The notes beneath the pieces were generated by a model. It did not search any database. It was not told the origin of the DNA and saw only the letters and a program-made list of their open reading frames with translations. 64,000 bases of DNA from Geosiphon pyriformis uo1 (Eukaryota > Fungi > Glomeromycota). Positions 2 through 61,366 of the stretch are shown in pieces. The stretch's first letter is position 1; every line of letters starts with the position of its first letter. The stretch lies in the NCBI GenBank assembly GCA_016748015.1, contig JAAOMT010000627.1, positions 310,001 through 374,000 of the forward strand. The letters run 5' to 3'. Both the position numbers and the translations under genes were made by a program.

Positions 2-814
2 TGCCTAATTGAACTCTTATCTGATCAAGGAACACATTTTGTGAACAACTTGATACAAGAAATTTGTGAATGGTTCAATGTTAAAAGATTTTTATCATCA
101 CCTTATCACTCTCAAACAAATAGACTTGTAGAATGTTTTAACAGAATATTGTGTGAATCTTTAGCCAAAGTCTCAACAGAATTTGAGCAGGAATGGGATA
201 TCTTTATTCCATTAGTGTTACTAGCATACAGAACACTAAAACAAGATACTATGAAACACACACCATTTGATCTTACTTATAGAAGAACAGCAATATTACC
301 AATTAATTTTACAGTGGAAACATACCCAATGCAACCAATCAATGAAGAAAACTTTTAAGAGACACTTCAAAAAAGAGCCTACACTCTTTTTAGTACACTG
401 GAAGAAAAAAGAAGAATAGCAGCAACTCATATTGAATATTCTCAAGCTCAACAAAAAGAAAGACATGACAACAAATTACCACCTATTACCAACGAATTTA
501 AAGTTGGAAATAAAGTTTTCTTACACAGAATTAAGGCTGAAAAACAATGGAGTGGGAAATTTGAAAACAAATGGGATGGACCATTTTATATTCACGAAAT
601 TCTAGGCAATGGATCATATAAGTTAAGACTTAATGACAAAATATTAGCAAAAGTTGTACATAGAGACAGATTGAAACACTATCATTCCAGAAACAATCCT
701 GAACCATTAATTCCACAAATTGGTACACATTTCCCTTTAATTAATTCTGAAGATATTCTCTGAAATTTAGAACCAATAATTATAATAAAACAACAACCAA
801 ACTTGAATCCTTAA
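2..814 (+). pseudogene. Gypsy pol C-terminus: integrase core end plus GPY/F SH3-like tail, with in-frame stops
   Basis: ORF 41-358 continues in frame past TAA 356 (likely from CAA) and TGA 761 (likely from CGA) to TAA 812-814; no chromodomain seen. Confidence 0.9.
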
Positions 815-956
815 ATTTTACAATAATTCTCTAATAAAAACACAAAGACAAAAATAGTAAATAATTACAAAACACCCAGACCCAAAAACAAATAAAAACC
901 CCATATCCAAAAATAATTTTCTTTATTCTTTCTTTTCATAATTAGTCAATTTTATC

Positions 957-1664
957 ATGATTATTCTCCGAAATATTCAACAAATATCCCAAAAATTAAT
1001 GTTAGCCTTAAAAACACTCCCTGACTTATCTATAACGATTAATAAAAGTCAAATTAATTACATTCAGAAAGAAACCACAGCCCCAGTAGCAAATCATTTA
1101 CAGAACTATCACCCCTATAAAAGAAAAACAAAAAGTCACTCGGAGAATAGATTACCAAGCCTTTTGAAGCAGGCACTAGAAGAAAATCTTTTAATTGCCC
1201 CTATTGACATTCCACCAAATACTACAATGCAACAAAAACTTCTACTACTTCTCAATGAACAGAACAATGAACACACCCCGATCTATAAATACTTTTACAT
1301 TGGAAAGACACTTTATGAACGAAAACTGGAACTTGAAACAACAAATCTCACTCCTAAAGCTATACAAAAACAAATTCACAATGAATTCAAAACAGCAGCT
1401 GAACCAACAAACACTCGCTACAAACTTAGAGCAGCTTTTAGACTCTATGATTTGTTTAATACTTGTGAAAATGTTCTACAAAATTCAATACTGCAACCAA
1501 TGAAAATCCAATACATTGGCAAACTCACAGAACTGAAATTTCAACAATTTTCAGACCAGATTACTTCAATTATTTTGAATCACTATCTCAATATTACAGA
1601 TAGTGCTTGGACTTTGACGGAGCTCAGTCTTGAAGAGGAGATTATGTTACCAGTAGAATTTTAG
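957..1664 (+). CDS. Retrotransposon accessory ORF3 (235 aa, unknown function, no signal peptide or TM segment); stop codon lies inside the 3' LTR
   Basis: Uninterrupted ATG-started ORF between pol and PPT; by-eye homology to the same-position ORFs in E3 (clear) and E2 (distant). Confidence 0.75.
   Translation: MIILRNIQQISQKLMLALKTLPDLSITINKSQINYIQKETTAPVANHLQNYHPYKRKTKSHSENRLPSLLKQALEENLLIAPIDIPPNTTMQQKLLLLLNEQNNEHTPIYKYFYIGKTLYERKLELETTNLTPKAIQKQIHNEFKTAAEPTNTRYKLRAAFRLYDLFNTCENVLQNSILQPMKIQYIGKLTELKFQQFSDQITSIILNHYLNITDSAWTLTELSLEEEIMLPVEF
1610..1644 (+). promoter_or_regulatory. Conserved pre-PPT motif plus polypurine tract of E1
   Basis: GACTTTGACGGAGCTCAGTCTTGAAGAGGAGATTA directly before the LTR; similar motifs at 17719-17754 and 54384-54419(-). 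Confidence 0.75.
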
Positions 1665-2594
1665 CTATTAATTAGCATGAAATTACCCTTATAATTCCTA
1701 TAATTAATTAGTATATTAATATCATTTCAAATTATTATTTATTATTTAATCAATTATCACATATCACGAGTCAATCAAAATAATCTAATTAGTATAACAA
1801 AAAGTAGGATGATTAAATTACACAATATTTTGAACTTTGTAATATTCAAAAATTCGCCGAAATTATGAATAGTTCACTCAAATTAATCAATAGTTCAGTG
1901 AAATAACTTGTAGTTCATCAAAATGTATCTTTAATTCGCCGAAATTTGAGCAAAGAGAAAAAGTGCAAGTTCATAGACTAGTACTACAACAAGTTGTATA
2001 AAAGAAGAGCTTTTCTCTTCAAGAAAATATATCTTACTTTAGATTTATCACTTAGAACTATTCCTATATACACAAAAAGAAATAAATATCAAATAATTTG
2101 AAAAACCAAGTTCTTTAATTATTGCACTTGAAAAATCCCCAAAACCCAACTAACATTTCGAAATTGATTAGCTACCAATTTTAGTAAACTGTTAGCAACT
2201 CCAGGCCTGGATAGAAAACGTTTCTCTTGATAAAATTCTATTTCTTTTATATTTCTTTATTTTTTTTTTCTTTTCTTATTACAATCATTAAAGTAGTCTA
2301 CAGACGAGATTCCTGTAGAAGAGTTGATTTTCACAGCAAAGTGACTACACATTTTTAGTAAGCTTTCAGACAAGCAATTCCTGGAAAAGAGTTGATGTTT
2401 ACTACAACATAACTACATAAAACAACTGGCAAGAAATTGGCCATTCTACTTATAAGCCCAACAGTTCAAATTATAGAAGATAATTTGAAGATAAATTCAG
2501 TTATTGGAGATTCAACTACATCCAGAAAACGTGAATTCACAACAAACAGGCATCAACAACATTTAAGAAAAGAGACCAAAAACCTCTGGTAACA
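1645..2594 (+). repeat. 3' LTR of E1 (950 bp)
   Basis: 9-bp inverted termini TGTTACCAG/CTGGTAACA; homologous to the reverse-oriented LTR at 46831-47670. Confidence 0.92.
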
Positions 2595-3309
2595 ACATAT
2601 ATAATAAAAATAATTTTAATATTTTATATATTAAATTTAATAAAATAAAATTGATTACTTGTAAAAATATGTTAAATAATTATTTTTTGTTTTAAAATTT
2701 CATAATTTTTGTGAATTTAAATATTTTTTAATGGTTTAATCTTTAATAATATATATTAATAATAATAATAACAACAGAATACAAAAATTTTATATTAAAT
2801 AATTAAATAATAAAATTTTTGTTTATTATTAATTTTGTTTATAAATTAATAATTAATTATAATAAGTATATTTAATTATTTAATATTAAATTTAAGACTA
2901 TATTAAAAAAATAACATATTATAAACTAATAATTTAAAATTTATTAGTTTTTTATAGTATAATACAAATATTTAGTATTATAAAAAACCAAACTATTAGT
3001 TTTAATTTAAAAATACTTAATTTGTTTTTTTTGAATTAAATAAATATTATTATTTGTAAAATAAAAGCAAAAAAATAAGAAACAAAATATAATATAAATA
3101 ATTAATAAATATAATATAAATTATTAAACATATAATATTAAATATATAATTTTATGTTAAATAATATTTTAAAACTTCTTTCTCTCCTTCATCCAAAATT
3201 CCCAAAAAAGAGTCAAAAGTTTTTTTGAAAGAAGTTTTTTACCATTCAGTATAATAAATCAAAACCATTTTTCAATTACGAGGCCACTGTTGGTCTTGTT
3301 ATTGCTGTT

Positions 3310-5107
3310 ATGAAGAAGACTCTTAAAGTTTCTGGTTCTAATGGTGGTTTTAAAGCTGTTGCATCAAGGAAGAAAAAGAAGAGAGATGTATTAGAAAAGA
3401 GTGTTGATAATAGTGGGGTTGCTGCTAAAGCTCTTGGTGCTCGTTCATGGGGTTCTGAGACTGGTGACACTACTGAGTCTAAAAGTATTGACATGAAGGA
3501 AAAATGCTTGGTTGAAAAAACCAGTGTTGACTATGGTGAGAGTGGTACTTTCACAGAAGGAGATCCTAATCAAATGTCAAAGAGTTTGCATGTAAAGACC
3601 AAAAAAGTGTTGAGGAAGCCATTGGGTGTAATTGATTACAATACTGTCAATGCAGGTAATGATGTCTTGGATGATTTCTTCTCTTTTCCACCCCTTCTTT
3701 CTATCAAACCATCTGTTTAAGTGTCTGTTTACAAGTCTTTTGCTTTAAATATTGATCTTGTGGCCATCATTAAGAAGTTTTCTCAGGAAAAATTAAGTTT
3801 TATCAGAAAAATTTTTTCAGGTGTGAATGGTTTTGGGGGGGCTTCTACTTTTTCAAAATTTGATGGAATTATTTATGCGACTTTCACTTCAGAAGAAATG
3901 ATGATGGCTGCAGCTAAATTAGCAAATGATTGTGGTGTTATGGTAAATACTGATCTCAAATGCCCTAGCAACAATTATACAAATCGGGCTATTGTGCTGA
4001 AAAAAATTCCAGTGGAAACATTTGTGGAGGCTGTGTGTGTGGCTGTGTCCAAATTTGGGGTAATTAAGATGATCAAAATGCAACTGGTAGGTTTGTGGCA
4101 AAAAGCGATCGTCAAATTGGAAGATTAGAATCAGGCTAATCTATTAGCTGCCAAATGGTCCATTCTAATTGGGAAAGATGCAGTACAAGTGGCCAGGGCT
4201 GACATCGACAAACATTCATGAGATGCCCAAAATAGTTTTAGAGCTTTGCTGTATACTCTCTCCATGGGAACTACTGTTCATGATTTATGGAATTTTATTA
4301 GTTCTGTTGGTGGGAAGACCTGCTTCATTGATTATAATTCTGTCAGTTATTTTCGTGCTCGCTGTGCCACTGTGTGCTTCGACTCTGAGTTGGATTTGAT
4401 TGGTGCTATGACAGTGACTCCAGTTATAAAAAATGTTGGTTTCTGCTGGTCTTGTCTCTCTTAGGCTTTATGTACAGTTTGTGAACATTTTGGTTATGTC
4501 TCTTAGTCATCAGTCAGTTAAGGATACTGTAGCTCTGGACGGCAGAAAAACTTATCTTTTGGCTTAAGACCAGTTCAGGTTGGCTAGGATTTATGCAAAA
4601 AAGTCTGCGCTTATTTCTTGTTCTTTGGCTTTCGGTGGTAAAACTTGGACATCAGTAGTTGATGCTTCTTCTGTGTGCACTTTTTATGGTGCTGGTATGT
4701 CTCTTGGTTTCAATAAAATTGGTGAACTCCTTCCTCTGGTTGTGAACAACCTGGAATCATATTTGGTTAGTATTGAAAGCAGTCTTGTTAGCCTTGCAGA
4801 ACAGATTAGTGAGTTGGCTAAGAGGTTGGAATCACTCATGCTGGCAGTTTCTCAGCCTAGCCCTGAATGTTAGCTGCCAGTGGCCCCCCTATTACAGAAT
4901 CAAGGAGAGAATATAGTGATAGGAGTGGGTTTGGGTGAAGCCACTAGTGACAGAATTGATCCAATTGTAGACTCAACAGCATCCCTTCATGTTGTCAAAC
5001 TGGAAAAAATACTGGATGGCCTCTTCAGGTCTGTGTTAAGCTTGTCTGCTTACTTTGATAGTTTGGCTTTGGCTGGTGGTGCCACTTTTCTAACTTCTTT
5101 TCAATGA
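3310..5107 (+). pseudogene. LINE-A ORF1 (nucleic-acid-binding protein with RRM-like region and a degenerate Cys knuckle), disrupted
   Basis: Collinear fragments 3310-3720, 3721-4128, 4246-4464, 4580-4873, 4880-5107, homologous to ORF1 of LINE-B and LINE-C. Confidence 0.85.
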
Positions 5108-8100
5108 GTGATCTCATATAAAGGGTTGCTATGTGCAATGTTAGAGGTATGAATGTTCCTGCAAAACAAGATGATATTGTTTGTTGGCATAAAGATATAA
5201 ACAATTTGGTTTCAATTTTCATGGAAACAAAGTTAAGAAATAAGACTTGTCTTTGGTTGGTTGACAAATTTGATGATGTTTATATGTTTTTTTCTGGTTT
5301 GGACTCTGGCTATGTGGGTGCTGGTGTCATGATTGTTATGAACAGATTCTTGGCTAGGCATATGTATAAGGTTTCTGAGGTCCCAGATTGTCTTTTCTGC
5401 ATTAGATTACTTTTCAAAAATAAACTTTCAGTTTTGATTCTGGGGCTGTATGCTGGTGCCTCTTTGGCTACTTAATTTTCCCAGGCTAATGAGATCAATT
5501 CCCTGATTGCAAGAGCTATAAATGAATCTTTTTTTGTCATTCTTGGTGGTAACTTTAACAAAGATAGTTCTCATAAGTGTGCTAGTTTTAAAAAGTGCCA
5601 TGATTTGGGTTTGATTAATTCTTTGGATGGGAGTTTCTTTGCTAAGGCACCAACTTGGAGCAATTCTCAGGGTGTTGCCAAGACAATTGATTATGTGTTT
5701 GTTTCCTCAAATCTGGTGAATGTGATAATACAGCATAATGTTTTTGTTGTTAGTGAACATTTTGATATGGATTACAAAACTGTTTTTGTGTCTTTGGGTT
5801 TGGGTGGCCTTTTAGATGCAAAATTAAACTCTCTTTGCAAACAAGTGAATAAGAATCAATGAAAGTTCAATTTCAAAGATACTGATGAGATTAAATGGAA
5901 TAATTTTAAAAGTTCTACACTAGCCAATGCTATATTGTTCTTGGGTGAATTTGCTGCATCTGTGAGGTTCTCGGATTTGAACACTATGTGGTGTGTTGTG
6001 TGCAATGTTATAACTCTTTTGGCTAATAAAATTTTCAAAAAAAGACGGTTCAAAGGATTTGATAAAGTTTTCACCAAAAATTCTTCAAAATTTCATAAAT
6101 TGGAGCTTTTGGTTTCTAGAATTGTCAAGGCTTTACATGGGGAAGATGCTGGGAACTTTGTTTATCTTATGGAATGCTGAAGTTCTGTGAACAATGTCAA
6201 GTCTTCTGTTGTTCAAAATCTGGTGGATCCTGGTGCTGGTTCTGATCATATTTATTCTGATCTTTTTAGTGCTAGGAAGTCTTATTGTGCTTCCAAACTC
6301 ACTGAATCTCTGAAAGCTAAGAAAACAAACATCAGATCTGCCATTAATAAAAGAATGGAGAGCTTTGAGGTCAACAAGGGTCATATAATCAGGAGTGTGC
6401 TGAAGCGTTCATTTCATAAAGTGGTGCTAAACCATTTGGTGGTTAATAATGATCTGATTTTGAAACCTGATTTGGTTAAATCTGAGGTAGATGTGATAAT
6501 GAAGGGATAGACCAAGAAGCATCATGTGGCTGATGATATTTCATTTGATTGGTGCCATTAATATCAACCTTTGGAATACATTTTTGATGAGGTCTTTTCT
6601 GATGTAATGTGCCTGATTGGTTTTGATGAATTCTTTGGGGTGGTTTCTGATTTGCCTAATGGCAAAGCTGCTGGTTTGTCTGGTATCTCAAATAAACTCT
6701 GGAAACATTGTGATAAGTCTGTTTAGGATATGCTCTTGTTGATTTTAAATCTTTGTCTGTCTGGTGAATTGGTGTCTGGCCCTTAAAAAAAGATCTGGGT
6801 CTTGATGATTCTCAAACCATATGAATGAGAAGGTGTTTTGACCAATACTTATTCTATTGCTTTGATTGAAATGGCTCATAAGATTCTTTTTAAGATTCTT
6901 TCTGATAGGATCTTCTCAGCATGTAGTGCTTTTGATGTCCTTCATGGGGCCAATTTCTCGGTTTTAAAGGGTACAACAACTCAGTCTCCTATTTTTGCAA
7001 TTGGTTCAGTGGTAGAAGATGCTTTGAAAAAAAACCAAGAGCTTTGGCTGGTTCTACAGGACATGTGAAAAACATATGATTCGGTTGGCTGGGAACATCT
7101 CAAAAATAGTTTGATCAGAATTAAGATGTGTAGCAAGTTCATTTGTTTTTTTGGCAACATTTACAATAATTGTACCAACCAGATTATGACAGATTTTGGT
7201 TTGATGGATGGTTATCATGTACATAATAGTCTGAATCAAGGAAAAGTTTTCTCTCCTCTTTTGTGGTGGATATTTTATGATCCTTTGTTGTGTGAAGTCA
7301 GGCATCAGAAGAGTGTATGTAAATATAGACTGAATTCTCATTTTATTTCCAAGAATGATTGTGCTGAATCTTGGGCTGGGTGTTTTTCTTTTTTTGCTGC
7401 TGGTGCTTTCACTAATGATATAATTTGGGTTGGTAGCAGTCATAGCACTACTCAACATATTTTTAATATTGCCAGTGAATTTTTTCAGATCAATGATATC
7501 TCAATTAATAATAACAAAACAGTGGCAATTCCTATTAACAGCAGAGTCAGCAATTCTTCTCTTTCTATCAGTGATCTGCCTATTTCAGTCACCAAAAAGA
7601 AAGAGTTTTATCGATACTTGGGTATTTTTCTTTCAACTGAGGGCTTTTCTAAATCTAGTTTAGTAAGGGTGCATTCAGATGTTTGTTTTTTTACTAATTT
7701 GGTTTTGAAGAAAGCTGTCTCGAATAAACAGTTTTTGTATTTGGTTTTGGTGGTTTTTTATCCTATTGTTAGCTTTAGAACACAGTTTAGCTTTATTCCT
7801 GTTGGTGTGTGCAACAAATGGGATGCTTTGATTTGCAAAGGCTTAAAGCTGAAATTTGGTCTTCCATTGGACTTTCTTAGTAATACAATTCACTACTCTT
7901 TCTTTTATGGTTTGAAGTTTTTTTTGCAGTGTTAATCTGAGGGCAAGATTGCTTTACTTATTAGTTTTGCAAACTCTGGCAAAATTTTGGGGCGTCTATT
8001 TGGTCACAGGTCTCATGACTTACAGGTTCTGTGTTGGCAACCTGTTCATCCGTTGGTTTCTTCTGCTCATGTTTGTGTCAATACTTCTAATAACTTCTTA

Positions 8101-9783: not shown

Positions 9784-9917
9784 TGTCATCCTGACTGGCT
9801 CGAGTAGCTGGTCACGTGTAGAAAATGCATGATTCACACTTAGTTTAGATCATTTCCTTGATGTATGATTTTAAGTAGTGTTTGAATCTCACTTGTTAAA
9901 TGAAATAAAAAAAAAAA

Positions 9918-10773
9918 TATATTAAATATTTTAAAAATTTTAATAAAAATTTTAAAAATTCTAAAAATAACAAAAATTTTAAAAAAACTAACAGAAATGC
10001 CAAAAATTTCAGAAATATTAAAAATTATAAAATTTTTAGAAATCTTGTATTATAAAAATTTATATATATATAATAAAAATATTAAAACAAAAAAGACAAA
10101 CAATTTAAATTAGAAACAAATTTTATTTTATCTTATTAAATAATTTTTATTGTTAATAATTTAATATTTGAAATTTATATTTATTTAAAATAAATTTATT
10201 ATATTATCTAAATTTAATTTTATAAGTTTATACTTATTTTATTAAAATCCAATTATTTTTTTATTAATATTAGTATTAATACAATATTACTAATAATATT
10301 AAAACAATAATTTTTAATTATAACTATTAATAAGATGCCAATTTTTTATTTTTTTATTTGTTTTGTTTGTGTTTATTAAATTAATTTAAAAAAAAGCACT
10401 AAAATTATAATATTAAGAATTGTTTGGTAAAAAACATAAAAAAAAAGCATAGAATATAGTCAAAGAATTAAAATTGCTTATTAAAAAAGTAAAAAACTTC
10501 AGAATAAATTGGTTATTATATTAAAAAAGTTAGATATTAAGTATTACTTACTATTAATAATAAATTTTTGTTTATAAAAAAATTTATTATTAAGACTTTT
10601 AAAAAAAATTTTAAATTAAAAAATTATCAGTTTAAGTATTAAGTTACAAAAATCTAAATAATTTAATAATTCAATTATAATAAAAAATATAAATTATCTA
10701 ATTTAGAACATTTGATTATTGTATTATATTAGATAATAATTAAGTTTTACTTATTAAAAAAAATAATTATAAT
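9918..10773 (+). repeat. AT-eroded ghost LTR of the E4 family; its 5' tip is probably at about 3048-3170, split off by LINE-A
   Basis: Collinear with the LTR at 60491-61364 (AAAATTTCAGAA-type array, TATATA, T-rich tract, terminal TATAATA read as eroded TGTAACA) and with 33600-33880(-). Confidence 0.6.
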
Positions 10774-10789: not shown

Positions 10790-11443
10790 TGTTATGATTG
10801 AAACCCATAATTTTTATGGGTTATCACATGTATTAGTCACTGATGTCATATAATTAGCCACTCTATTTTTAGATAGTGATCATTGACCTGATCAATGACC
10901 TAACTGTTGACTTGCTTATTGACCACTTTCATTAGCTATATAAGTGATGAGTCTCTTAGCTGTAAAAAATTATCTCTTAAACAAGAATCAAATAAATAAA
11001 AATAACAACTTTCATCTCAATCACTTTCTTATCACTAATTTCTCTTTCCCTACCTTCAAGTATCTGAACATCTTAAGATAAAAGATTACTTGTTAACTTT
11101 TTCCTGATGTATATAATTGTAGCATTTGAAGATTATTTGAATAAACATGACTGAAAAACACAAGTTGATACTTGATATTGAATTTTAAGAGCGCTAACGT
11201 GAGGCATAGAATTATACCAGTGATAATCAATTGTTGACAGTATGGACTATCTCTCTATCTTCAGATTCCCCAGTTACTTTTGAAAAAAATAGTGACTGAG
11301 ATATTTTATGAGACTGATCTCACACATTGAATCCATACTCATTTAATTTGCTTATTGAAGTTGAATCCTCTTTGATTATTTCCATTACCCTACAATTCTG
11401 TTCTTCCTTGCTATCCATTAGCTTGTTACTCTAACCCATAACA
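10790..11443 (+). repeat. E2 5' LTR (654 bp)
   Basis: TGTTATG...CATAACA; direct repeat of 17755-18420. Confidence 0.96.
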
Positions 11444-11449
11444 TAAAAG

Positions 11450-11465
11450 TGGTGCTCCCTGTAAG
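11450..11465 (+). promoter_or_regulatory. tRNA primer-binding site of E2 (TGGTGCTCCCTGTAAG)
   Basis: TGG-initiated, 6 nt after the LTR; identical 16-mer follows the E4 LTR. Confidence 0.88.
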
Positions 11466-11495
11466 ATTGTCAAAATTCACTTATTCCTTTATTGT

Positions 11496-13051
11496 ATGGG
11501 TGATTACTCATATCTGCCACAGTAATCAGAAGAACATTTTGCAGCACACAACAGAAACGACCTAGATTTTATTAAACTTAATCCTCTGCCTTTCTGCTTA
11601 ATTTGCTTCCCCCTTGAAGAACAATCCAGTAGACAATTCCAAGACTTTTGGAACTGGTTCCTGAATAAGCATTCAGCTGAAACTTACACAGCTTATACAA
11701 CCTATTACTTTGACCAAGCTTATTTTGAAAATGACTTTGAAGAAAGAAACAACAGTATCAATCAGCTCTTATATTCTGCAACCTTTGAACAACAGCCCCC
11801 TGATTTCGAATATCTGAATCATCAAATCCACATTTGGATTGCTGCCCATCAAGCAACTAAAACTTCCTTTAAAACAGAAAAAGAAAGCTACCAAACTGCC
11901 CCTGTTTTTGACCTTTTATCAAGCGAATTAGACTTGTTTACACAAACAGTTACCCCTGAACCAATGGCTATAACCCCATGCAAGCAAACATTCTGGCCGC
12001 CCTCCAAAGTATACAAACTGTTCTAGGAAGAAGAAACAATACCCCACTACCACTATTTAGAGGTGATGCACAAGATTCAATTGAATGGTTGGATGATTTT
12101 GAGAGAGCTGCCACAGCCAACCAGTATGATGAAGAATACAAGTTCTAAATTATTGGTGGCTACCTCCAAGGCTCTCCTGCTACCTGGTTTTCACAAGAAA
12201 CAGATGCTAATGCTCAATACAGAATAATCAGATGGACACCAATCAATGCTAAAGAAGAAAATACCTCTTTCACTACCCAATTTGAGGCCAAGTTCAGAAC
12301 CCCAATATTAATATTCAAATGGCGCATGGAATTAGAAAAAAGAACCCAAGGCCCTGGAGAAGTAGTGACTGAATATACCAAAGCCATTAGAAAGCTAATC
12401 AAATGTGTAGACTTTGGGAAAAACTGGACAGAAGAACAAAAGATTCATTCCTTCACAAAAGGATTGAAAACCAATTTATCTTATGCTCTTTGGCCTCTCT
12501 TAGCCCTAAAAGACAACCCTACAATGGACATGGCCATTGAACTTGCCCAACGAATTGAAAACAACCAAAGAATACATTTGGGATCTACACTTCCAGTTTT
12601 TGCTTCTGCTCTTGTTATGGCTCCTGCCCCTCAAATGGCTGCTGCTTTTTTTGCTGCCCAAACTCAAGATCCAAATGAACAATTAATTGATAGACTCACA
12701 GCCAATCTTGCCCAGTTATTAGAACCTTTAGCACAAGCAGTCAGAGATAACCAGCAACCACTAAGACCTAGATACGAACCTTGTTTTAACCAGCCCCAGC
12801 AACCTCCCTATCAAAGACAGCAAAATTGTGGCCCACTTGTGTGCTATTGTTGTGGATTAACTGGACATTATTTAAGAGATTGTAACAATTCTCTACTGCC
12901 TCCTCTAGCTCCCAGAAACAATGACAACCAAAACAACAGACCCAACAACAACAACAATGTCTCCAATCAAAGACCTAATTATGCCAACATCAATTTCTTT
13001 GGAGAGGATTCCCTAGTTGAAACCACTGTTTATCAATCTTTAAACTGGTAA
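11496..13051 (+). pseudogene. E2 gag (capsid-like domain plus CCHC zinc knuckle), disrupted
   Basis: ATG at 11496; EWLDDFERAATANQY and QGPGEVVTEY..AIRKL capsid-like motifs; CYCCGLTGHYLRDC knuckle; stop TAA 13049-13051. Confidence 0.88.
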
Positions 13052-13076
13052 GCACACCTCCAAAGAGTGAGAGTGC
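13039..13076 (+). promoter_or_regulatory. Putative programmed -1 ribosomal frameshift site (T TTA AAC plus stem-loop)
   Basis: Gag codons TCT TTA AAC TGG TAA give a correctly phased X XXY YYZ heptamer; the -1 frame is open into the protease ORF; hairpin GCAC..CTC CAAA GAG..GTGC starts 6 nt downstream. Confidence 0.8.
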
Positions 13077-16000
13077 AAGCCAACCAAAAGAAAACCCCTT
13101 TTATGCTTTTAACTTAACTGATAATGACCATAACATGGATGAACTAGCAATTAACCCCTTTGAATTCACAAGAAAAAAGAAGAAAGCCAAAGTTGATTTC
13201 ATTCTGGACCCCAATAAAGCTTCTACATCAACTGCTGACAACAATGAACCTCCAAAAGCCAAAGTTTTCAAGAACTCTTCAAAGTTAGAACCCCCAGAAA
13301 TAGTACAAAAATCCGGCCCCTATTTTGTTGTCAAAGACTTCATGAAAACCCCAGCACATATAACCTTTGGCCAATTAATGACCCATTCACAATTCAGAAA
13401 AGATCTTCACAAATCTCTGATTTCAAAGAAAAAGACACCCAAAACCAACAAACGCTCTCGCCAAGCTGGACTTGCTGACAATAGCAATGTCACTCCTCTA
13501 ATTTGCAAAGCCCAAGTGGCTGGCTACTTCATTGATTTAATTCTAGACAGTGGATTATCTGTTAGTGTTATTGCTAAACACTTTCTTGAAGCAATTGGCA
13601 GAAAAATTGATGAACTATCTACATGACCAATAACCAATGTGCATGGTGATAAGAAGAAAGGGCTTGGCATAGCCAAAGCTATTCCTGTTTGCATCAATGG
13701 CATCAGTATTGAAACTGATATGGAAGTATCTGAAGTGAAAGAATATACTATCATTGTTGGCAATGAATGGCTCAAGAAAGCAAAAGCTTTGCTTGATTAT
13801 GAACTCTGTGAACTAACCATCAGATGTGATGAGAAACCTATTGTGGTTAAATGTCACCATTGGACAACTCCCCCAGTACCCAAACAGAGCCCAGAAAAAA
13901 ATAAATCAGACGAATCAGATGATGAAGAAAGTAAGGAAGAAGAAAAACAAGAAGAACAAGAAGAAACTGTTAAACTCGCCTATACTATCTTCACCAGCAA
14001 TGGCAAACCACTGGATAATGTCAAGGCAGATAAAGAAGGAATCATTGTCAATGACAAGCTGATCTGCTGGCCTTATTATGACATGCTCAGAAGAACCTTT
14101 AACAGAAAGCCAGGCAAGAAAGCCAAATACAATTATTGGTGGCATGGTCCTTGTGCCCAGTGCTGGTGCGACAAACCATTGTATTTTCCTAGCAATGAAT
14201 GCATGTTCTGCCTGATATATTACAAGGATTGGGAACCAATCAGCTTGATACCCCGTAAGGAAATAAAAGAAGTCCAAAAGTCCTTTGAAAATGAACCACC
14301 TGAAATCCAATCACTGGTTGTAAAACAAAGAGAACTCTCTCCAGAAGAAAAAAAGATAGATATTAAAAACCTGCTGACTAGAAACAGCCCAGTTATCTCA
14401 AAAAAAGGTGAACCTTCTGGACATACACATGTGATACAACACACCATCATTACCAGAGAAACTTGCCCCATCTATTTGAAGCCCTATCAATCTAACCAGC
14501 ACAATGATGAGTTTATCAAAAAGAAAATAACCCGAATGAAAAACCTTGGATTCATACAGAAAACCAAGAGTAAATGGGCATTCCCAGTTGTAGTGGTATC
14601 CAAAAAAGGAGGAACCCTATGCTTTTGTGTTGATTATCGCCAATTAAATGCCATTACTGAAAGAGACATGTACCCACTTTCCAAGATTGATGCAATGCTA
14701 GACCAATTTCATGGTGCCACTTTCTTCTCAACTATTAACTTAATTGCTAGATTTTGGCAAGTAGAGATGGATCCAGAAAGCAGAAAAAAAACTGCCTTCA
14801 TCACCAAGTATGGCACCTACAAATTCACAGTCATGCCTTTTGGTCTCACAAATGCTTCTCCCACTTTTCAATGCTTAATAGACAAAGTATTTAAATCAGT
14901 AAAAGAAAACTTTGTTCTAGTCTACTTGGACGACATAATGGTATACTCAAAAACCTGGGATAAACACCTTGAATATTTGCAAAAGGTTTTTGACCTCCTT
15001 AGAAATGCTGGCCTCAAGATCAATCCAATCAAATCATTCTTTGGACATCAATCCACTCAGTTCCTTGGTCATCTTATTACAAAAGATGGAATCTTCCCTG
15101 ATCCAGCCAAAATTGAAAAAGTTCAAAACATTAAACAACCAATGAATGTTCATGAACTATGCTCTTTTCTTGGTTTGGCCTTTTATTATCGCAAGTTTGT
15201 CAAAGATTTCTCCAAAATCGCCACTCCTCTCAATCAGCTACTTAGAAAAAACATCAATCATCACTGGGGCACTCATCAACAAAAAGCATTTGAAATTCTG
15301 AAGAAAAAACTGGTTACAGAACCCATCCTCATGCAACCTAATCTGGATCAACCTTTTATCCTCCATACTAATGCATCTGGCTATGAATTTGGTGCTGTTC
15401 TTTCCCAGAAAGACGAAGATGGCAGGGAACATGCCATAGCATATGCCAGTAGAACTCTCACACCAGCAGAAAGGAACTACTCAGTCACTGAGCAAGAATG
15501 CTTAGCAGTAGTTTGGGCTACCAGCTACTGAGACAAATATCTTAAGGGTGTAAAATTTTTGGTGGTAACAGATCACCAAGCTTTGGTTTGGCTACACAAC
15601 AAAAGAAACCTGGATACTCCACTTGGATGAATTCAACTATGACATTCAATACTGCCAAGGAGCTAATCATCAAAATGCCGACGTTCTCTCCAGACTTACC
15701 ATCCAGTGATAGTAAAACCCTCTCAAACCAAACCAACTTAATTATTTGTAACTCCCCCACAAACAAACATGATAATGGACTTGGACAACTACTCTGCTTT
15801 AATAGAATTTTTGGGTAAAAGACAATACCCACCAGACTATACTCGACAGCAAAGAGAACATTTGCACAAACAATCAAATTTCTATTTGATTCGCCAGAAC
15901 CAGTTATATAAAAGAAATAGAAAAGATCCTGACTGCCCTCAAAGAGTTATTAGATTTGAAGAAAGAGAAATTGTGATCTACAATATGTACACTGATCCAT

Positions 16001-17028
16001 TAACTGGACACTTTGGAAAAACAAAAATGATTCAGAAAACTTTAGCTCACTATTATTGGCCTACCTTAGAAAAAGACATTGCTGAATACATCAAAACCTA
16101 TAATACCTGCCAAAGAAGAAGAAAACCCAATCACAAGAAAGATATCCATCCGATCTCTGTTGGTCAACCATTTGACAGAATTGGTATAGATGTTGTTGGA
16201 CCTTTAACAGTAACTCCTGATGGCAACAGATACATTATCACAGCTACCGACTATCTTACAAAGTGGGTAGAAGCAAGAGCCACCCCAGATCAAACAGCAG
16301 TCTCAATTGCCAATTTCATTTATAAAGATATTATCTGTCATTATGGCTGCCCCAAAGAACTTTTATCTGATAGAGGAAGAGCTTTTCTCAGTACACTGGT
16401 TAAAGAACTTTGCAGAAAAATAGAAATACATTATAAACTCTCTTCCCCTTATCACCCCTAAACAAATGGTCTAGTGGAACATTTCAATAAAACACTATGT
16501 GAAACCCTAGCCAAAACCAGTGAAGAAACCAACCTATGAAACAAAGTATTGCCTTCAGCTTTGTTTGCCTATAGAACTGTGAATCATGACATAACAAATT
16601 ATGAACCTTTTTATCTGCTCTATGGATGAATGGCAACTCTACTAATAGAAACGGATATAGAAACAATACTTTTTGAAGAAATAACAATAGGAGATTACAA
16701 GAACATTTTGCAAAGAAGACTTGGTACTATTCTTGACTCATTGGTAGAAGCATGGATAATTGTCTTTAAAAAGATAAAACAGTTCCAAGAGAAGCTCAAA
16801 AAGAAAAAGACCTATAAAACACTTTCCTTAAGTGTTGGTGACTTAGTTTTGGAATACCATTCAAACAAAGACAATGTCTATGGTGATAAATTCTCCAGCC
16901 ACTGGAAAAGACCTTTTATAGTCAACAAAGTTTTGAACAATGGTTCATATATCCTACAAGATCAATATGGAACAATATTCAGTAATTACCCTATTCATGA
17001 CACACGACTTAAGAAATATCACAAATGA
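13040..17028 (+). pseudogene. E2 pol: aspartic protease, RT, RNase H, integrase, with premature stops
   Basis: LILDSG; CVDYRQLN, MPFGLTNA, YLDD; LHTNAS..GAVL, RNYSVTEQECLAV; GHFG..C, IGIDVVGPL, LLSDRG, SSPYHP. Confidence 0.96.
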
Positions 17029-17075
17029 CCTGATTAGTTACCTGTTGTGGTAATACTGACCCAAATGATCAATAA

Positions 17076-17711
17076 AAATCAGATATAAATAAATGCACCA
17101 TTTCCAAAACAGAGGTATCTTCAATTGACATAAACAATTATTTTCTAGATCAAAACATTCAAAATGCTTTCTACACTCTCCATGAGTACTGGATCAAAAA
17201 TTATCCAAATGCTACTCTGACTATTGGAAAACAAACCACCATAACTGATAACAGTGGAACACATACTGTTATTAGACCAAAGAAAACCACTACCAGAAGA
17301 GAAAAAATTGGTAGCAAAATGGATAAGTATTTGCTGGAAAGCATAACAGCAACAATACTTACATCTTCCATGACAATTGGAAAAATAATTAAGAAAATCT
17401 TGCTCATAGACAAAAACTTGTCATATGGAAGACAACTAGAACTCTATGGTTGTCTTGATGAAATTATAAAAGAAATGAAGCTCATAAAGAAAACAACTTC
17501 AGAGATACAAGTGGAAATTTTGGGCATTATACATTTAGATGTCCCAAGAGTTTTGACCATTGCAAGAAGAGCCAAAACTCTTATACAAAAATTTGGTCTC
17601 TTGGATACAAAGCTTATTTCATCTCAAGTACTATATACACTATTCACAAAAGACTTCAACAAACTAGTTAGTTTTGAGTTAGACAAAAATCTTCAATTAG
17701 ATATCCTATAA
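17076..17711 (+). CDS. E2 accessory ORF3 (frame open for about 211 codons; start possibly ATG mutated to ATA at 17085)
   Basis: The listed ORF 17319-17711 extends without stops upstream to 17076; same genomic slot and similar motif pattern as E1 ORF3. Confidence 0.65.
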   Translation, partial: KSDINKCTISKTEVSSIDINNYFLDQNIQNAFYTLHEYWIKNYPNATLTIGKQTTITDNSGTHTVIRPKKTTTRREKIGSKMDKYLLESITATILTSSMTIGKIIKKILLIDKNLSYGRQLELYGCLDEIIKEMKLIKKTTSEIQVEILGIIHLDVPRVLTIARRAKTLIQKFGLLDTKLISSQVLYTLFTKDFNKLVSFELDKNLQLDIL

Positions 17712-17754
17712 ATAACTTGATTTCGCCAGAGTTCAATCTCTTTGAAGAGGATAA

Positions 17755-18420
17755 TGTTATGGTTGAAACCCATAATTTTTATTAGTTATCACATGTATTA
17801 GTCACTGATGTCATATAATTAGCCACTCTATTTTTAGATAGTGATTATTGATCTGATCAATGACCTGACTGTTAACCTAATCATTGACCTAATCATTGAC
17901 CACTTTTATTAGCTATATAAGTGATGAGTCTCTTAGCTGTAGAAAATCATCTCTCAGACAAGAATCAAATAAATAAAAATAACAACTTTCATCTCAATCA
18001 CTCTCTTATCACTAATTTCCTTTTTCCTACCTTCAAGTATCTGAACATCTTAGGATAAAAGATTACTTGTTGGCCTTTTCCTAACGTATATAATTGTAGC
18101 ATTTGAAGATTATTTGAATAAACATGACTAAAAAGCACAAGTTGATACTTGATATTAAATTTTAAGAGCGCCAACGTAAGGCATAGAATTATACCAGTGG
18201 TGATCAATTGTTGACAGTATGGACTATCTCTCTACCTTTAGATTTCCCAGTTACTTTTGAAAAGAATAGTGACTGAGATATTTTATGAGACTGATCTTGC
18301 ACATTGAATCCATACTCATTTAATTCACTCATTGAAGTTGAATTCCCTTTGATTATTTCCATCACCCTACAATCCTGTTCTCCCTTGCTATCCATTAGCT
18401 TGTTACTCCAACCCGTAACA
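17755..18420 (+). repeat. E2 3' LTR (666 bp), preceded by PPT GAAGAGGA
   Basis: TGTTATGG...CCCGTAACA; 12-bp tandem duplication relative to the 5' LTR. Confidence 0.96.
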
Positions 18421-46830: not shown

Positions 46831-47670
46831 TGTTACCGGAGGTTTTTGGTCTCTTTTCTGTAATGTTGTTGATACTTATTTGCTGTGAATTCACGTTTTC
46901 TGGATGTGGTTGAACCTCCAGTAACTGAATTTATCTTCAAATTATCTCCTATAATTTGAACTTGCTGGGCTTATAAGTGGAATAGCCAATTCCGTGCCAG
47001 TTGCTTTATGTAGTTATGTTGTAGTAAATGTCAACTCTTTCCCAGGAATTGCTTGTCTGGAAGCTCACTAAAAATGTGTAGTTACTTTGCTGTGAAAGTC
47101 AACTCTTCTACANNNNNNNNNNNNNNNNNNNNNNNAGTTGGGTTTTGGGGATTTTCCAAGTACAATAATTAAAGAATTTGGTTTTTCGAATTATTTGATA
47201 TTTATTTCTTTTTGTGTGTATAGGAATGGTTCTAAGTGATAAATCTAAAGTAAGATACATTTTCTCAAAAAGAGAAGCTCTTCTTTTATACAATTTGTCA
47301 TAACACTATTCTATGAACTTGAACTTTGCTATTTTCTAAAATTTTGCTGAACTAAAGATACATTTCGGCAAATTACAAGTTATTTTGGCGAACTATTAGA
47401 TATTTCGGTAAACTATCAATTATTTCGGCAAATTTCTACAAATTTCAGCGAACTTCTGAATGTTACATAGTTCGGGGTATTGCATGATTGATCATTACAA
47501 TTAGGTTACATTTGTGTTGTGTACAATTTGGGTTATTAATTAAATGATAATTTTGGACATTTTTGCTAATGTAATAAGTGATTATTTGAAATAATAATAT
47601 ATGCTAATTAATGATAGAAATTATAAGATAATTTCATGCTAAATAATATCTCTAATTTTGTCTGGTAACA
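46831..47670 (-). repeat. E1-family LTR (solo, or a collapsed element) inserted in the LINE-C endonuclease; 4-bp TSD CTGT/CTAT
   Basis: TGTTACCGG...CTGGTAACA; reverse complement aligns with 1645-2594; removing it and one TSD copy restores the SFITETKLR frame. Confidence 0.9.
47113..47135. other. Assembly gap (23 N) inside the LTR
   Basis: Run of N. Confidence 1.
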
Positions 47671-54383: not shown

Positions 54384-54395
54384 TTATCTTTTTCT

Positions 54396-55020: not shown

Positions 55021-58000
55021 GGAATTTTTATTTTTTAATTGTTGTTTTTATCACTTATATTGTGTTTTTATATACTATTTTTTGTAAATTAATTTAACAT
55101 GTTTGTATTAATAATTATAATTGGTTTTAGATCTTGTAAAATCTCATCTGATTGGACTAATATTTGTTGTACTTCTAGTTATGAAATATTATTAGTAAAT
55201 AATAATGTTATATTGTAATATGATTTTAGTCAATTCTCATGTGCTGTTTTAGTTAAAATTTTGTTGTTCCATCTTAATTTATAAGTTCTATTTCCTAGAA
55301 TTTTTTCAATATGAAATAGTTTATTCCATTTGGAATCAAATTTTCTATTCCATTGTTTTTCTGCTTTGGTACAATATAAGAGTACTTTGTTTCCAATTCT
55401 GAATTTAACTGGTTTATTTGGTAATTAGTTATTATATTATTTTTTTGTTTTGCTTGTGACTTTTGTATATTATTAGCTACTGTTTGCTTTTGGTTTTCTA
55501 AAGTTTTTATTAAGTTATATGTTCTTTTTAGTAATGTTTTTTGGAAGTTGACTTCTGTTATTAATTCTGTTAAATATGTATTAATATTTATCTTAACTAG
55601 TAATATTGCTGTTTTATTATAGACAAGTTCAAATAATATTGTTTGTGTAATATCTTGCTTTATTATCTAATAAGCAAATAATACTGATAATATAAACAAA
55701 TCCCATTTATTCTGATTTTTTTGGCTGATCTTGGCTATTGCTTTATACAATATTCTGTTAAACTTTTTGATTAAACTATTTGTTTATAAATAATATAATA
55801 ATAATAATGGTTTCTTAATTCCAAATTTTTGACTTAATTTTGTTAATGTTTTATTCACAAAGTAAGTTCCTTGGTTTGATAATAATTTTTTTGGATATCC
55901 ATATTAATAAATTATATCTTAGTATATAAATTTGACTATAAATTTTACATCTGTTCTTTGAATTGCTTTTGCTTTTGGCCATTTGTAAGATAATTTATGA
56001 CTACTGTTATATATTGATTGTCTCTGCCAGTTATTGTTAATGGTTCTACCAAATTGATTCCAATTCAATTAAATAATTGTTTTACTTTGACTAATCTTAA
56101 TAGTTTACTGAGTCTTATTTTTTCTCTTTTCTAACAAGTATTTTGTGTTTTTCTAATATAAAATATTTTGGTAAGTAATAAAATATTTTGATTGTTGTTT
56201 TATGTTGTTTTGTTCTTTTTAAGATAATTTCTTCTTGAACTATTAAGTATTAATATAATATTGGAGTTGTTAATATTTTTGTGTATTTATCTTTTGTTAT
56301 ATTTTTGGGTTTGAAATATTCTTAGATTTGTTTCATTTGTAATAAACTATCAGTATTTTTGTTTTTTTTTATAATGTACAGTAAAATTAAATGATGATAA
56401 TTTTATTTTCTATCTTGTATAATAATTGTCTCCAAATTTTTGTTTTTGAATTAATGTCAATTTTTTGTGATTAGTATAACATCAAACTTTTAACTTAAAT
56501 ATTTTTTCTATTTAATGACAGCTTAATAGATAGTTAAGTATTTTAATACTAAAGTTTTATAGTTCTTCTTGGCTGAATCTAAACTTTAACTGGCATATAT
56601 TACTGAATGTTTTCATTTATCTGCTTTTTTTTGTAACAATACAACTCCCAATACTTAACCAAATGGATTAATAGTAATAATAAATGATTTGTTATAATTT
56701 GAATAGATTAGTATTGAGATTTAAATAAGCTTTCTTCTCAAAATATTGAAAGCTTTTTGTTGAGTTTTAGTCTATTTATATTTTATATTATTTACTTAAA
56801 ACTGGTAAAGTGGTTGAGCCAGTTTGGAGAAGTTTTGAATAAAGCAATAATAATATCCAGCAAATTCCAAAAATGCTCTTAATTCTATTAAGTTTGTTAG
56901 TACTGGAAAGTTTTTAATTATTTCAATTTTGTCTGGGTTTGTTTTAATGTTATTTTTGCTTATAACATGTCTCAAAAACTTGAGTTTAATTTTGTTAAAA
57001 AAGTATTTAATTGTATTTAATTTTAATTTGGCTCTTTTTAATCTTTTAAATACTTGTTTTAGATAGTAAAAATGGTTATCAAACATTTTAGAGAACACAT
57101 TGGTGTTATCCAAGTAAACTACTACTGATTTCTATAATAATCTGGTGTAGATGAATTTCATAAGTTGTTAAAAGATGGTTGAAGCATTAGTTAAGCCAAA
57201 AAACATAATATCAAATTCAAAATTCTCTTTTTTGGTTGTAAATACTATCTTTTCTTTGTTGGCTAAATTCATAGTTAACCACTATCTAAGTTCAATATTG
57301 AAAACCATTTTTTTTTTCCAAAAACATTAAACAATTCTTATATCTGTAGAGTTGGATAGCTGTTTTCATAAATAATACTGTTGAGCTTTTAGTAATCCAC
57401 ACAAAAGTGAATCTTTCTATTTTTTTTATGGACTAATATTTCTAATAATAACCATAGATTTATTGATAGTTAAATTAACTTATTGTTTAACATTTGGTTG
57501 ATTTTTTGTCAGATAATTTTATAGCTAACTAATAATATTCTGTATGCTTATTGCTTGATTGGCATGGTATTTTCTATCTTGATCTGATATTAAATAATAT
57601 AGTTTTACCAAATTCATTTTCATTAGCAAAGATGTCAGTAAAATTGTTAAGTAGCATTTGTTAAAGTGGATCTAAATTTCTCAAGTTTATTTGTTTTAAT
57701 TGTTTTAGTTATAACAAATAATATTCTTCTTATTCATAAATTGTTTATAATATAATGTCTATATATTTGCATAGTAGTGAAAAATCTGGAATAGTAGTTA
57801 GGATTTGGTTTTTAACTTTAATGTTTAAGTATCTAATAGTAGTTCTACTTAGTATTTCTATAAGATCTTCAATTGTATTGTATATGAGAATCTTGATGTG
57901 TTTGTGGTTTTTGGCTAGTATATAAAGATTGGTAATAGTAATCTCTTCTAATTCACAAATGTTTGTTTTAGCTTTAAAAACCTGGAGTTAATCCTTTATT

Positions 58001-58119
58001 TTCTTCTCTATAACTACTGTATACTGGTCATATAGTAAAATAGAAATTGATTGATGGGTGGAGATAGTTTTTCCCTTATAAATAGTTTCTTTTTCTGTTA
58101 TATTGACTGGTATTTTTAT

Positions 58120-58520
58120 TCTATCTGTAAATTCAAATCTCTTTATCTCTCTTGCTGTAATTCTTAAATCTTTTTCTGTTCTCATTAATATTAACTGAGC
58201 TATTTTAATCAGAGACAAGAATATTGTCTGTGCTATCTTTTTATTTGGTTCAATGATATTTTTTTTCTAAATCATTTTGTAATATTACAATAATATTTTC
58301 TATATATCCTGTATCAATTATTTTTTCTTTGATATTAATTTCTTTTTTTGCTAAACTAAATTTAGAGACTAGTTGAACTATTGTTGTTGCCAGAATTTTC
58401 AGTATTATTTTCAGATCTATACTAGTGTGCATATGAAGTTCCAATCTGATGACAGTTTTTCCTAAATATCTAAAATCAAACTTTGTATTAATATTATATA
58501 TGTGTTTTGGCATAATATCT
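58120..58520 (-). pseudogene. dUTPase domain within E3 pol, between protease and RT
   Basis: Eroded motifs in order: NTKFDF (AGFDL), SKFSLAKK (SRSSLA), KIIDTGYIEN (GIIDAGY.G), IAQ, REIKRFEFT (RG..GFGST). Confidence 0.78.
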
Positions 58521-60490
58521 TTGTTATTATTACTGAACCATTTAAGTTCTTGCTCCTTTATGAAATCTGAAAGCATAATATATTGTTCAAAGTTGTAATT
58601 GGAGTTTGAATTATTATTTTTATTGCCATAGTAAATAAAGTTGGAACTATTGTTGTTGTTATTATTATTATCAAAGGTTGAATTACAATTGATTTTAATT
58701 CCAATTCTAAAACACATTTGCTGATTGGTTTTTCTTTTTTGGAGATTAAATAGATTATGTATAGTAGTAGATTATAGATAAGATTACAATCATTACAGTA
58801 TTCAAAGTTACTAGAAATTAGACAATATTTATAAAGTTTAGTGTTTAATTGTTTTAAATACTGTTTTTGCTCTTTTCTAATGAGTGTTAAATCTTGGTAG
58901 TGTTTATAGAATTGTTTTGAATCATTTAAGATGTCAATAAATGCATCTGAATTAAGAATAAAAATAGTTTTAACAGATTCTAGTGGGTTATTTTTGATCA
59001 CAAATATTTTACTGGGCAAAGTGTCTTTAACTTTGGTATTTGCTATTTACCAGATTTTGTTCTTATTGTGTAGATAACCATTCAAGCATAAAAGTATTCA
59101 GTTCTATGTAATATTAAAAAACATTTCTTGGCTTATTTAATCACTTATTAGAATCATGTATTGACATAATATGTCATATATTCTTTCTTAATTAAGAATA
59201 TTATTCCATATTTTTTTGTCAAATAAGAGTTCTCCACAAGTAAAACATGGTTTATTGTTTTATTTTTTTTGTTATTTAAGATAACCAAAATGTTTTCTGT
59301 AATACAGTTTGCAGTAGTAGTAAATGCATATTCAGTAGTTTTTTTCTGATAAGATCTAAGCTTTTATAGAAAAAAACTTTTTATTATAGTCAATATAGCT
59401 AAGTAGAATATATAATGATTCTTTTCTTGTATTAACAGAATATGATCTATTTTAGCCACTGATTATTTTTTTAGTGGCTATGGTGGCTTTTGGTTTGTCT
59501 TCTTTCTTTTTTTTCTTTTTATTATTCTAAAAAAATATTAACAGTAATTTATTGTGTTTGTCCTCAGTTTACAAAACTTAATAAGCTTTTCAAGTAGGGT
59601 TTTTTTTTTTTCTCTAACTTAATTAATAGTTGCTCTCTTAAAAAAGCTTTGAAGTATTTGCAGATAACTGGTACCTAAGTTTGTTGATCATTTTAACTAA
59701 GCTATAGCTCTTGTATAGTCCAATTAAATATGATATTGGTTTTAAACAGCCAGTTATTACTAATAAAAGCTTAATACTATGTGGCTTTTATTATAAGAAC
59801 TTTGATGAGTGTTATAATACTGTTAACTTTAAATAAAAAGTTATTAATTTTATTAATAGGAGTTTTAATGTTTCCATTAGTAATAATAATTCTGGTACTG
59901 ATAACATAATCAACTCAGTGATTTAATTGGTTCATGAATTGTCATGTGATAATATTGTCTATTGACTTATTATTAAGAATTAATTTGATAGATTGGCCAT
60001 TAACTTTGGCATTAATATATATAATAGTAATTGGTTTAGTATTAAGAGTGGCTCCACTAAATAAAAATAGTATTGTTAATTCTTCTATTTTAAAAAAAAA
60101 TATGACTGCAAGTAATTTATCTTCAGTGACAGTTGTTAGTAAAATATTGCTGATAAATAGTGTTTTTGGGCTTTTCAAGTTATTAGATGAGTTGATTTCT
60201 GGAGTAATCAGAAGACTTAAATATTTCTGGAAATTTAGGTTTTAGGTGTATCTACTTTCTGAACTCTGCTAACATAATTCTAATGATTAATTTAATAAAC
60301 TAAAAATTAGTTAATATATTACTATTGTTAATCTCTAATTTTGTTGTATATAAATAATTTTTGGTCTTTAATTGCTGGTTAACAATTGAACTAAGTTTTA
60401 AGCCAGTGTTTGAATTAGTTGTGATTAATAAATAATTTGTGACTGCAGTTAATAGATAATTGATGTAGAAATTTGATATACTAAAAATGA

Positions 60491-61364
60491 TGTTACTTAT
60501 AGAATATAGAAAATATAATATTATTAGTCAGTAGATATTAGCCAATCAGAAGTAGACATAGTAAATATGGAATTCCAGAATTTCTCTCAGAGGAATTGCA
60601 GGATTCCAGAAATTTCAGAATTTCCTAACAAGAAATTGCAGGATTCCAGAATTCCAGGATTCCTCTTATCAAGAATTGCAGGATTCCAGGAATTCTAGGA
60701 TTTCTGTCACAAAGAATTGAGGAATTGAGAAATCTCAATTATGTATATATAGCAGTAAGATTAGAAGCTGAAAAGACAGACCTTTCAAGTTTAGATTTAA
60801 TCTAAGCAACTCTCCAAATCACAACCATCTAATAAATAACTATTTGTTATCGTAAATCCATTTCCACTATCAACACTTCATGTTGATAGTAATCAATACT
60901 TAACCATACTAAAACAATAGTTCTTGATCACAGCTATTGACGGAATACTAACTTGTAAATTGCCTTGGCTTATTTCTTTTCTTTCTTTATTGTCTTTTTC
61001 TTTTCTTTATTTTCTTGCTTTAAGTTTATTGTTGTTTACTAATTCTATTGAGGATTAACGTATGGAGCATTGATGTCAGAATAAATGTGACTGGTAAAAG
61101 ACCCAGAAATAAAGGTAGAACATTCGATTGAAAATAACTTACCAGAAGAAATACTGGTCATCAAGCTGAGAAAAAAATTGACAAAACTGTAGTTTCAAGA
61201 AGCTATGAATAAAACTATCATCATTGAATCTCTGTCCATTATATAAAGAACTCAACCAAAACCTTCAGATACAAACCTTCAGATCATCATCAACTGCAAC
61301 TTGATTTGAGCACCAAGTTATGGGTTTTTATTTAATCCAACAAAAAAAATATTCACCTGTAACA
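60491..61364 (+). repeat. E4 5' LTR (874 bp)
   Basis: TGTTAC/GTAACA termini followed by PBS. Confidence 0.9.
60569..60740 (+). repeat. Tandem array of GAATTGCAGGATTCCAG(G/A)ATT-type units in the E4 U3 region
   Basis: Three near-identical GAATTGCAGGATTCCAG cores plus related partial units upstream of TATATATA. Confidence 0.85.
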
Positions 61365-61366
61365 TT

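Follow-up and report, generated by a model that had tools for sequence, protein, structure and literature searches.

A third gene between integrase and the 3' LTR in a clade of Gypsy retrotransposons of Geosiphon pyriformis

The extra reading frames of LTR retrotransposons are, for the most part, without known function, and the Gypsy elements of Geosiphon pyriformis raise the question in a pointed form: are the frames that lie between their integrase and their 3' LTR a gene, are they the same gene in different families, and what would such a gene do for the element that carries it? A sequence-only reading of the 64-kb stretch of DNA analysed here (the window) had proposed a conserved third gene, hereafter ORF3, in three Gypsy families, encoding a fast-evolving, soluble, helical and basic accessory protein that might act as a sequence-specific anti-silencing factor or transactivator.

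The window is AT-rich and crowded with decayed retroelements, among them four Gypsy elements (E1 to E4) and one solo LTR of the E1 family. E1 is represented by its 3' end (1-2594, + strand), including the last part of pol (2..763, +), which encodes an integrase core and an SH3-like C-terminus with one in-frame stop (Pfam rve and SH3_Tf2-1, both below the gathering score). E2 (10790-18420, +) is complete, with PBS, PPT, LTRs that are 91% identical (10790..11443 and 17755..18420), ATAT at both flanks, and a gag followed by pol in the order PR-RT-RH-IN; this gag-pol (gag, protease, RT, RNase H and integrase; 11526..17028, +) is interrupted by 6 in-frame stops and by frame breaks. E3 is a relic on the minus strand (about 53500-60340), whose gag end and pol (protease, RT, RNase H, integrase) were recovered by tblastn and blastn at 55090..60344, and E4, with an LTR and a gag similar to those of E3, begins at 60491 on the plus strand and has its 3' end beyond the window. 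Between the protease and RT of E3 lies a decayed frame (58250-58560, -) which, by eye, resembles a dUTPase in its motifs, an identity that Pfam and PDB searches did not confirm. E2 (11526-12026) and E4 (about 61430-62400) carry long and mutually unlike N-terminal extensions before the capsid-like region of Gag, in the scanned parts of which Pfam found nothing. The window also holds three related LINE-like elements (3200-9930, 34000-40865 and 43300-49960; 65-67% alike), with RT matches in all three and RNase H matches in two, the third of them (43300-49960) holding the solo LTR, and a BTB/POZ-domain frame at 30692-31531, which is likely to belong to an expanded host gene family.

Reading frames before the 3' LTR

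In all three Gypsy elements whose 3' end is visible in the window, a reading frame follows integrase, as the sequence-only reading had stated; its further claim that the frame stops before the PPT does not apply to E1 and E2. In E1 the frame is present exactly as described (957..1664, +; 235 codons from the ATG at 957 to the stop at 1662-1664), with a length that is not due to chance in DNA of such composition (5e-8). Past the PPT it enters the 3' LTR (from 1645) and stops after another 20 nt, so that its last six codons lie inside the LTR, and the same LTR-coded final six residues are found in 34 of the 120 E1 relatives listed. These relatives (204 of 445 candidates) are, in all 120 listed cases, annotated as Geosiphon pyriformis 'hypothetical protein', and 8 of 10 long gene models of the E1 family contain integrase sequence.

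The E2 gene had been placed at 17076-17711, which is merely a stop-to-stop frame: the family form (218 aa; 17130..17785, +) begins at 17130, where MNNYFL opens 64 of the 120 relatives listed, and extends into the 3' LTR, ending at about 17785. The copy in the window reads ATA at this start codon (with G in 59% of the read depth) and leaves the family frame by a frameshift near 17700, on account of which it must be considered dead. Thus, of the two frames said to stay open in spite of the stops in pol, only that of E1 does so; and this openness is uninformative, because at the stop density of gag-pol (7 stops in 1897 codons) it would be expected with P=0.42, which bears out the caution with which it had been put forward. 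The E2 relatives (130 of 389 candidates) are again Geosiphon pyriformis 'hypothetical protein' in all 120 cases listed; one gene model (P0124) matches the E2 copy of the window at 99% identity, and integrase sequence occurs in 33 of the 120 matches listed, since gene callers spliced two neighbouring genes together. P0108 and P0123, considered as evidence of recombination, were rejected, as they look like gene models joining neighbouring pieces.

The frame of E3 is a relic (55031-54396, -) with 16 stops in 212 codons. Nevertheless, it stems from a real gene: an intact relative of 211 aa, the family form, is 55% identical to it over the whole length and ends just before the PPT. Its relatives are few (4 of 182 candidates), those listed being Geosiphon pyriformis 'hypothetical protein'.

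The PPT and the DNA upstream of it form an element common to the three (1610..1644, +, in E1; 17720-17754 in E2; 54383-54420 in E3), and conservation at the DNA level takes in about 50 nt on and around the PPT (0/2000 shuffles as good in each case). This DNA is read in one frame by the ORF3s of E1 and E2, and in another by those of the E3 type, which stop before the PPT.

Homology and selection

Are these frames one gene? E1 and E3 had been said to align clearly, which is not the case for the relic itself, whose alignment with E1 is no better than with shuffled sequences even when frameshifts are allowed for, but holds through the intact E3 relative: hhalign gives 82% (E=1e-5) for its comparison with E1, colinear over 176 residues, and the local scores (z=8.7 and 12.4) were equalled by none of 1000 shuffles. 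By these comparisons, the ORF3s of E1 and E3 are homologous. A profile of both, run against 1.84 billion proteins, returned 77 matches, 70 of them new; 41 of these 70 are less than 55% identical to any reference, and 9 contain integrase sequence. Twenty distant matches were looked up, comprising 16 proteins from G. pyriformis, which were grouped by eye into three further lineages, 3 unnamed metagenomic proteins and 1 repetitive insect protein. Two of the metagenomic proteins are full-length (234 and 230 aa; E=5e-21 and 4e-17; 27-30% identical) and have the same PPT/LTR-coded end residues as E1, on the strength of which both probably represent ORF3s from elements of this kind in other organisms. 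No related locus was found in the viral, metagenome or prokaryote contigs searched. Two candidate relatives were set aside: the insect protein, P0303 (leafhopper, repetitive, 10 stretches), as low-complexity sequence, and a multicopy helical domain of Rhizophagus proteins as unsupported, none of the 20 distant matches looked up being from Rhizophagus.

The case of E2 is more delicate. That it shares the pattern of E1 and E3 found no support from hhalign, which was non-significant in all four comparisons with E1, E3 or pooled profiles, and E2 is absent from the matches of the E1+E3 profile search. A home-made global profile test was positive, however, with the PPT-coded tail left out (z=4.5; 0/600 shuffles, 0/600 block shuffles and 0/101 natural decoys as good) and also with a deeper profile (z=5.0; 0/800 shuffles, 1/800 block shuffles). 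Furthermore, E2 agrees with the others in the place and length of the gene, and in the order of predicted helices and hairpin, and it has a PBS in common with E4 and the PPT element in common with E1 and E3. From these comparisons, E2 ORF3 quite probably belongs to the same family.

A gene that is kept by selection should betray it in its differences. E1 was compared with one contig of another copy, which differs from it at 31 places in 1316-1637; in a test resting on this single contig and on the 28 differences listed, 21 are synonymous, against an expected fraction of 0.34 for transitions (p=1.3e-5), and the crude dN/dS is 0.17, not near 1. The four changes private to the E1 copy in the window are all non-synonymous, which is what decay after insertion would give. 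Between a pair of E1 subfamilies with 67% identity, 41 of 75 columns differ in the N-terminal part versus 24 of 125 in the core (p=4e-7). The ORF3 of E1 is under purifying selection. For E2, leaving aside 5 listed places behind the frameshift and with 52 further places outside the listing, 14 of 35 listed differences are synonymous, which is not significant (p=0.25); once CpG and private changes are removed post hoc, the remaining subset gives 9 of 15 (p=0.03).

These results bear on one rival reading, which takes ORF3 for a passenger derived from a piece of a host gene or for a side effect of base composition. The uninformative openness of E1 and the overall non-significant test in E2 are compatible with it, but the dN/dS of E1 largely refutes it for that family, a full-length frame with its motifs is kept at 27-30% identity in other sources, and no named host gene appears among the 20 distant matches looked up, so that this reading is hardly credible. 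In a Gypsy clade of Geosiphon, ORF3 is a genuine third gene with many copies, located between integrase and the 3' LTR.

Protein, promoter arrays and candidate roles

In general terms, the description of the product as a fast-evolving, soluble, mostly helical, non-env accessory protein of several Gypsy families has held up, in view of the copy number of the gene, its linkage to integrase, the selection in E1, the E1-E3 homology, the probable homology of E2 and the lack of a named host progenitor among the matches. No transmembrane segment is present (maximum hydropathy over 19 residues of 0.39-1.29 in nine representatives, and of 0.44-1.26 in five) and the N-terminal hydropathy reaches at most about 1.0; lacking a membrane segment, ORF3 is not env. 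The protein has between 0 and 2 cysteines and is basic in one patch, not as a whole (pI 7.1-9.5). Its predicted layout comprises a variable N-terminal helix and beta-hairpin, a basic linker with a PY motif, a conserved helical core (residues about 105-215), which carries the conserved patterns Y-x-Y/F-x-I/L-G and R-L-Y-x-x-F, and an acidic tail. The tail has a net charge of -3 to -7 in full-length forms; as most of it is dictated by conserved PPT DNA, read in different frames, it says little in favour of an activation domain.

PY signals are common in RNA-binding proteins. In ORF3, a linker motif fitting R/H/K-X2-5-PY is found in seven of nine representatives and is aligned across five lineages that are 25-35% identical; it is absent from one Geosiphon lineage and from E2, which has a longer basic run there. 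Since PY nuclear signals are described as sharing R/H/K-X2-5-PY at their end (PMC2408616), this conserved motif predicts a nuclear location. Beyond it, sequence searches of Pfam, PHROGs and the PDB returned nothing at threshold, matches to FtsQ (E=0.3) and SNaCT12 (E=0.02) being rejected as chance. The AlphaFold models are of low confidence (pLDDT 48 and 44), which means that no fold can be named or excluded; searched with these models, Foldseek gave no match at E<=0.001, and VIA reached at best Z 6.3 (67 aligned at rmsd 3.3) and Z 7.6 (to a designed protein, with 70 aligned at rmsd 2.2). Neither Pfam at its gathering score nor the low-confidence models pointed to a known DNA-binding fold or motif.

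What could a nuclear protein of this kind act upon? One answer is suggested by the LTRs themselves, as each of three types (E1-type, E2 and E4) has its own phased array directly before a TATA-like box. The E1 3' LTR (1645..2594, +) has in U3 an array of the dyad TTCGCCGAAAT (1851..1946, +), with three pattern matches and others decayed, before a TATA-like box at 1997, and the solo LTR (46831..47670, -) preserves six dyad copies at 20-21 nt spacing (47341-47452). The E2 5' LTR has repeats of 12-nt period (10877-10924), a TATA-like box at 10937 and a PBS from 11450, and the E4 5' LTR (60491..61365, +) an array of 40-nt (2 x 20) period at 60569-60737 before a TATA-like box at 60744. With patterns composed after the arrays had been seen, the E4 array holds 5 of 6 pattern matches (0.6 expected), the E1-type LTRs hold 9 of the 17 matches of the TTCGCCGAAAT dyad in the window (6.7 expected), and the E2 pattern is not enriched (22 versus 31 expected). 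The E4 array contains TTC-nn-GAA units, which resemble a heat-shock element, and owing to these units a host factor could use that array. As separate observations, E2 (11450-11465) and E4 (61367-61382) have an identical 16-nt PBS although their LTRs do not align, and the solo LTR contains 23 N at about 47113-47135, an assembly gap where about 170 nt are absent relative to the E1 LTR.

CpG, in turn, is depleted in these elements, with an observed/expected ratio of 0.01-0.51 as compared with 0.81 between 18.5 and 32 kb. Of 479 variant places, 291 are C>T or G>A, which is what methylation decay would give. In Rhizophagus, CpG methylation of transposable elements is reported to go with their silence (bioRxiv 10.1101/2021.03.30.436303).

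It is tentatively proposed, at a little under an even chance, that ORF3 is a family-specific nuclear activator of its own LTR, keeping it on in a methylating host. The protein would be expressed from a subgenomic, probably spliced RNA, would enter the nucleus via the basic PY-type signal and would bind the repeat array in the U3 of its own family, and this binding would keep the LTR promoter active against host methylation. Such a sequence-specific transactivating or anti-silencing role, helped by the family-specific phased repeats and the CpG depletion, is a fair lead, and there are precedents for a scheme of this sort in foamy virus Tas (PMC517496) and in VANC (PMC5735166). Against it, many LTRs have repeats in their U3, which host factors may use, and the TTCGCCGAAAT dyad, with its matches in U3, has none in the spacer upstream of E1 ORF3 (763-957), where a Tas-like internal promoter would sit. 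The fuller version, that a whole fungal Gypsy clade encodes a sequence-specific activator with a new fold, which evolves in concert with the phased, CpG-containing array in the LTR of each family and lets that family turn on its own expression or escape methylation, is rather doubtful. The same anatomy could also repress the LTR, and ORF3 might then be a self-limiting factor, restricting copy number or other families, or else a component of the particle. Self-encoded restriction exists in Ty1 (PMC12530519); nonetheless, these families reached a very high copy number, LTR elements making up 41.2% of the G. pyriformis genome by the account in PMC11952901, where Ambispora has a comparable LTR expansion, and no similarity to Gag was found, which leaves such a role very improbable.

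The nuclear signal and the basic patch fit equally well a Rev- or CERV-like nuclear factor that would bind RNA and export or stabilise the unspliced genomic RNA of its own element. A pyrimidine tract followed by TAG (917..945, +), read from the sequence 11 nt before the ATG of E1 ORF3, is a candidate 3' splice site, and in the contig of another E1 copy the spacer is unlike that of the window and similarity resumes at 946; splicing at this putative acceptor would create the need to export the unspliced RNA. A precedent within a Gypsy element is CERV of Cer1 (PMC10309623), and a 68-nt spaced direct repeat lies 3' of the TATA box in both E1-type LTRs (2309-2417 and 47009-47107), a candidate RNA element. 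Even so, sequence inspection reveals no acceptor-like tract before the ORF3s of E2 or E3, no RNA-binding motif was found, and the phased U3 arrays would be left unexplained, though host factors could account for them; an exporter is unlikely, though it is the main rival of the activator.

Finally, ORF3 could act, whatever the DNA sequence, on chromatin or silencing proteins of the host, or guide integrase to its target in the stead of a chromodomain, which the Pfam scan did not match at the E1 integrase end. A conserved helical core with a variable N-terminus would suit a protein-binding adaptor, and accessory proteins of transposable elements are predicted to have many host contacts (PMC13547354). 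There is, however, no positive evidence for any partner, and a suppressor of general effect would be a common good open to all families, yet every family maintains a diverged copy of its own, for which reasons this role is considered distinctly unlikely, and the family-specific activator remains the preferred reading.

ORF3 among accessory genes of retroelements

Additional ORFs that follow pol and precede the 3' LTR form a known class. Like the sense additional ORFs (aORF-3S, ORF3) of Ty3/Gypsy elements, the Geosiphon gene is an extra sense gene in this position, present in most copies of a family and across diverged families; examples include the env-like ORFs of plant Athila and Bagy2 (PMC7264820), rotifer ORF3s (PMC5408684) and a fungal 'add. 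ORF' of unknown function (PMC2864245). Unlike these, Geosiphon ORF3 constitutes a separate protein family, has neither a membrane segment nor a Pfam model, and overlaps the PPT and U3 in two families. With respect to the enzymatic ORF3s of rotifers (GDSL esterase, DEDDy/DEDD exonuclease), no catalytic-domain match was found in it by Pfam or PDB sequence searches. Boty of Botrytis and Sclerotinia, named in PMC7264820, is likewise a Gypsy element of fungi in which an extra gene precedes the 3' LTR, but its additional ORF is given as antisense, whereas ORF3 is sense and nearly cysteine-free.

The closest functional analogies lie further away. Foamy virus Tas/Bel1 is, by the description in PMC517496, a small nuclear accessory protein encoded beside the 3' LTR and poorly conserved between lineages, a profile that ORF3, whose nuclear location is predicted, would share. 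Tas further has a C-terminal acidic activation domain, and response elements both in the LTR and in an internal promoter. No match between the two was found in sequence (Pfam) or in fold, the fold searches resting on low-confidence models; in addition, no dyad lies upstream of ORF3, its acidic tail is dictated by PPT DNA, the host is a fungus and the element lacks env. VANC of the VANDAL MuDR elements (PMC5735166) is a fast-evolving transposon protein with conserved and variable parts, associated with family-specific tandem motifs in non-coding DNA in a methylating host; it binds such short motifs and brings about a loss of DNA methylation on its own family. It differs in belonging to DNA transposons and in carrying DUF1985 and DUF287, neither of which was matched in the ORF3 proteins scanned, and the arrayed motifs of Geosiphon are confined to U3, where binding by ORF3 is putative. 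CERV of the C. elegans element Cer1 is similar by description, being a nuclear accessory protein, other than env, that an LTR retrotransposon produces from spliced RNA, the nuclear location being predicted and the splicing inferred in Geosiphon; CERV is reported to export genomic RNA (PMC10309623).

No published description of the Geosiphon ORF3 family was found in the literature searched, in which passages of PMC3248453 are likewise silent on such ORFs, and a mention in the G. pyriformis genome papers is possible; nor did that literature report any additional ORF in an LTR retrotransposon of Glomeromycotina. Within it, the family is undescribed, and it is real and selected in at least E1. An immediate consequence concerns annotation, as hundreds of G. 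pyriformis 'hypothetical proteins' are copies of this transposon gene. Moreover, the presence of several natural protein/LTR pairs in one genome makes a promoter switch or anti-silencing factor borne by a retrotransposon testable by cross-family swaps. Should each family prove to have its own activator, this would be a VANC- or Tas-like system in a retrotransposon, and would help to explain how LTR elements came to fill 41% of the genome.
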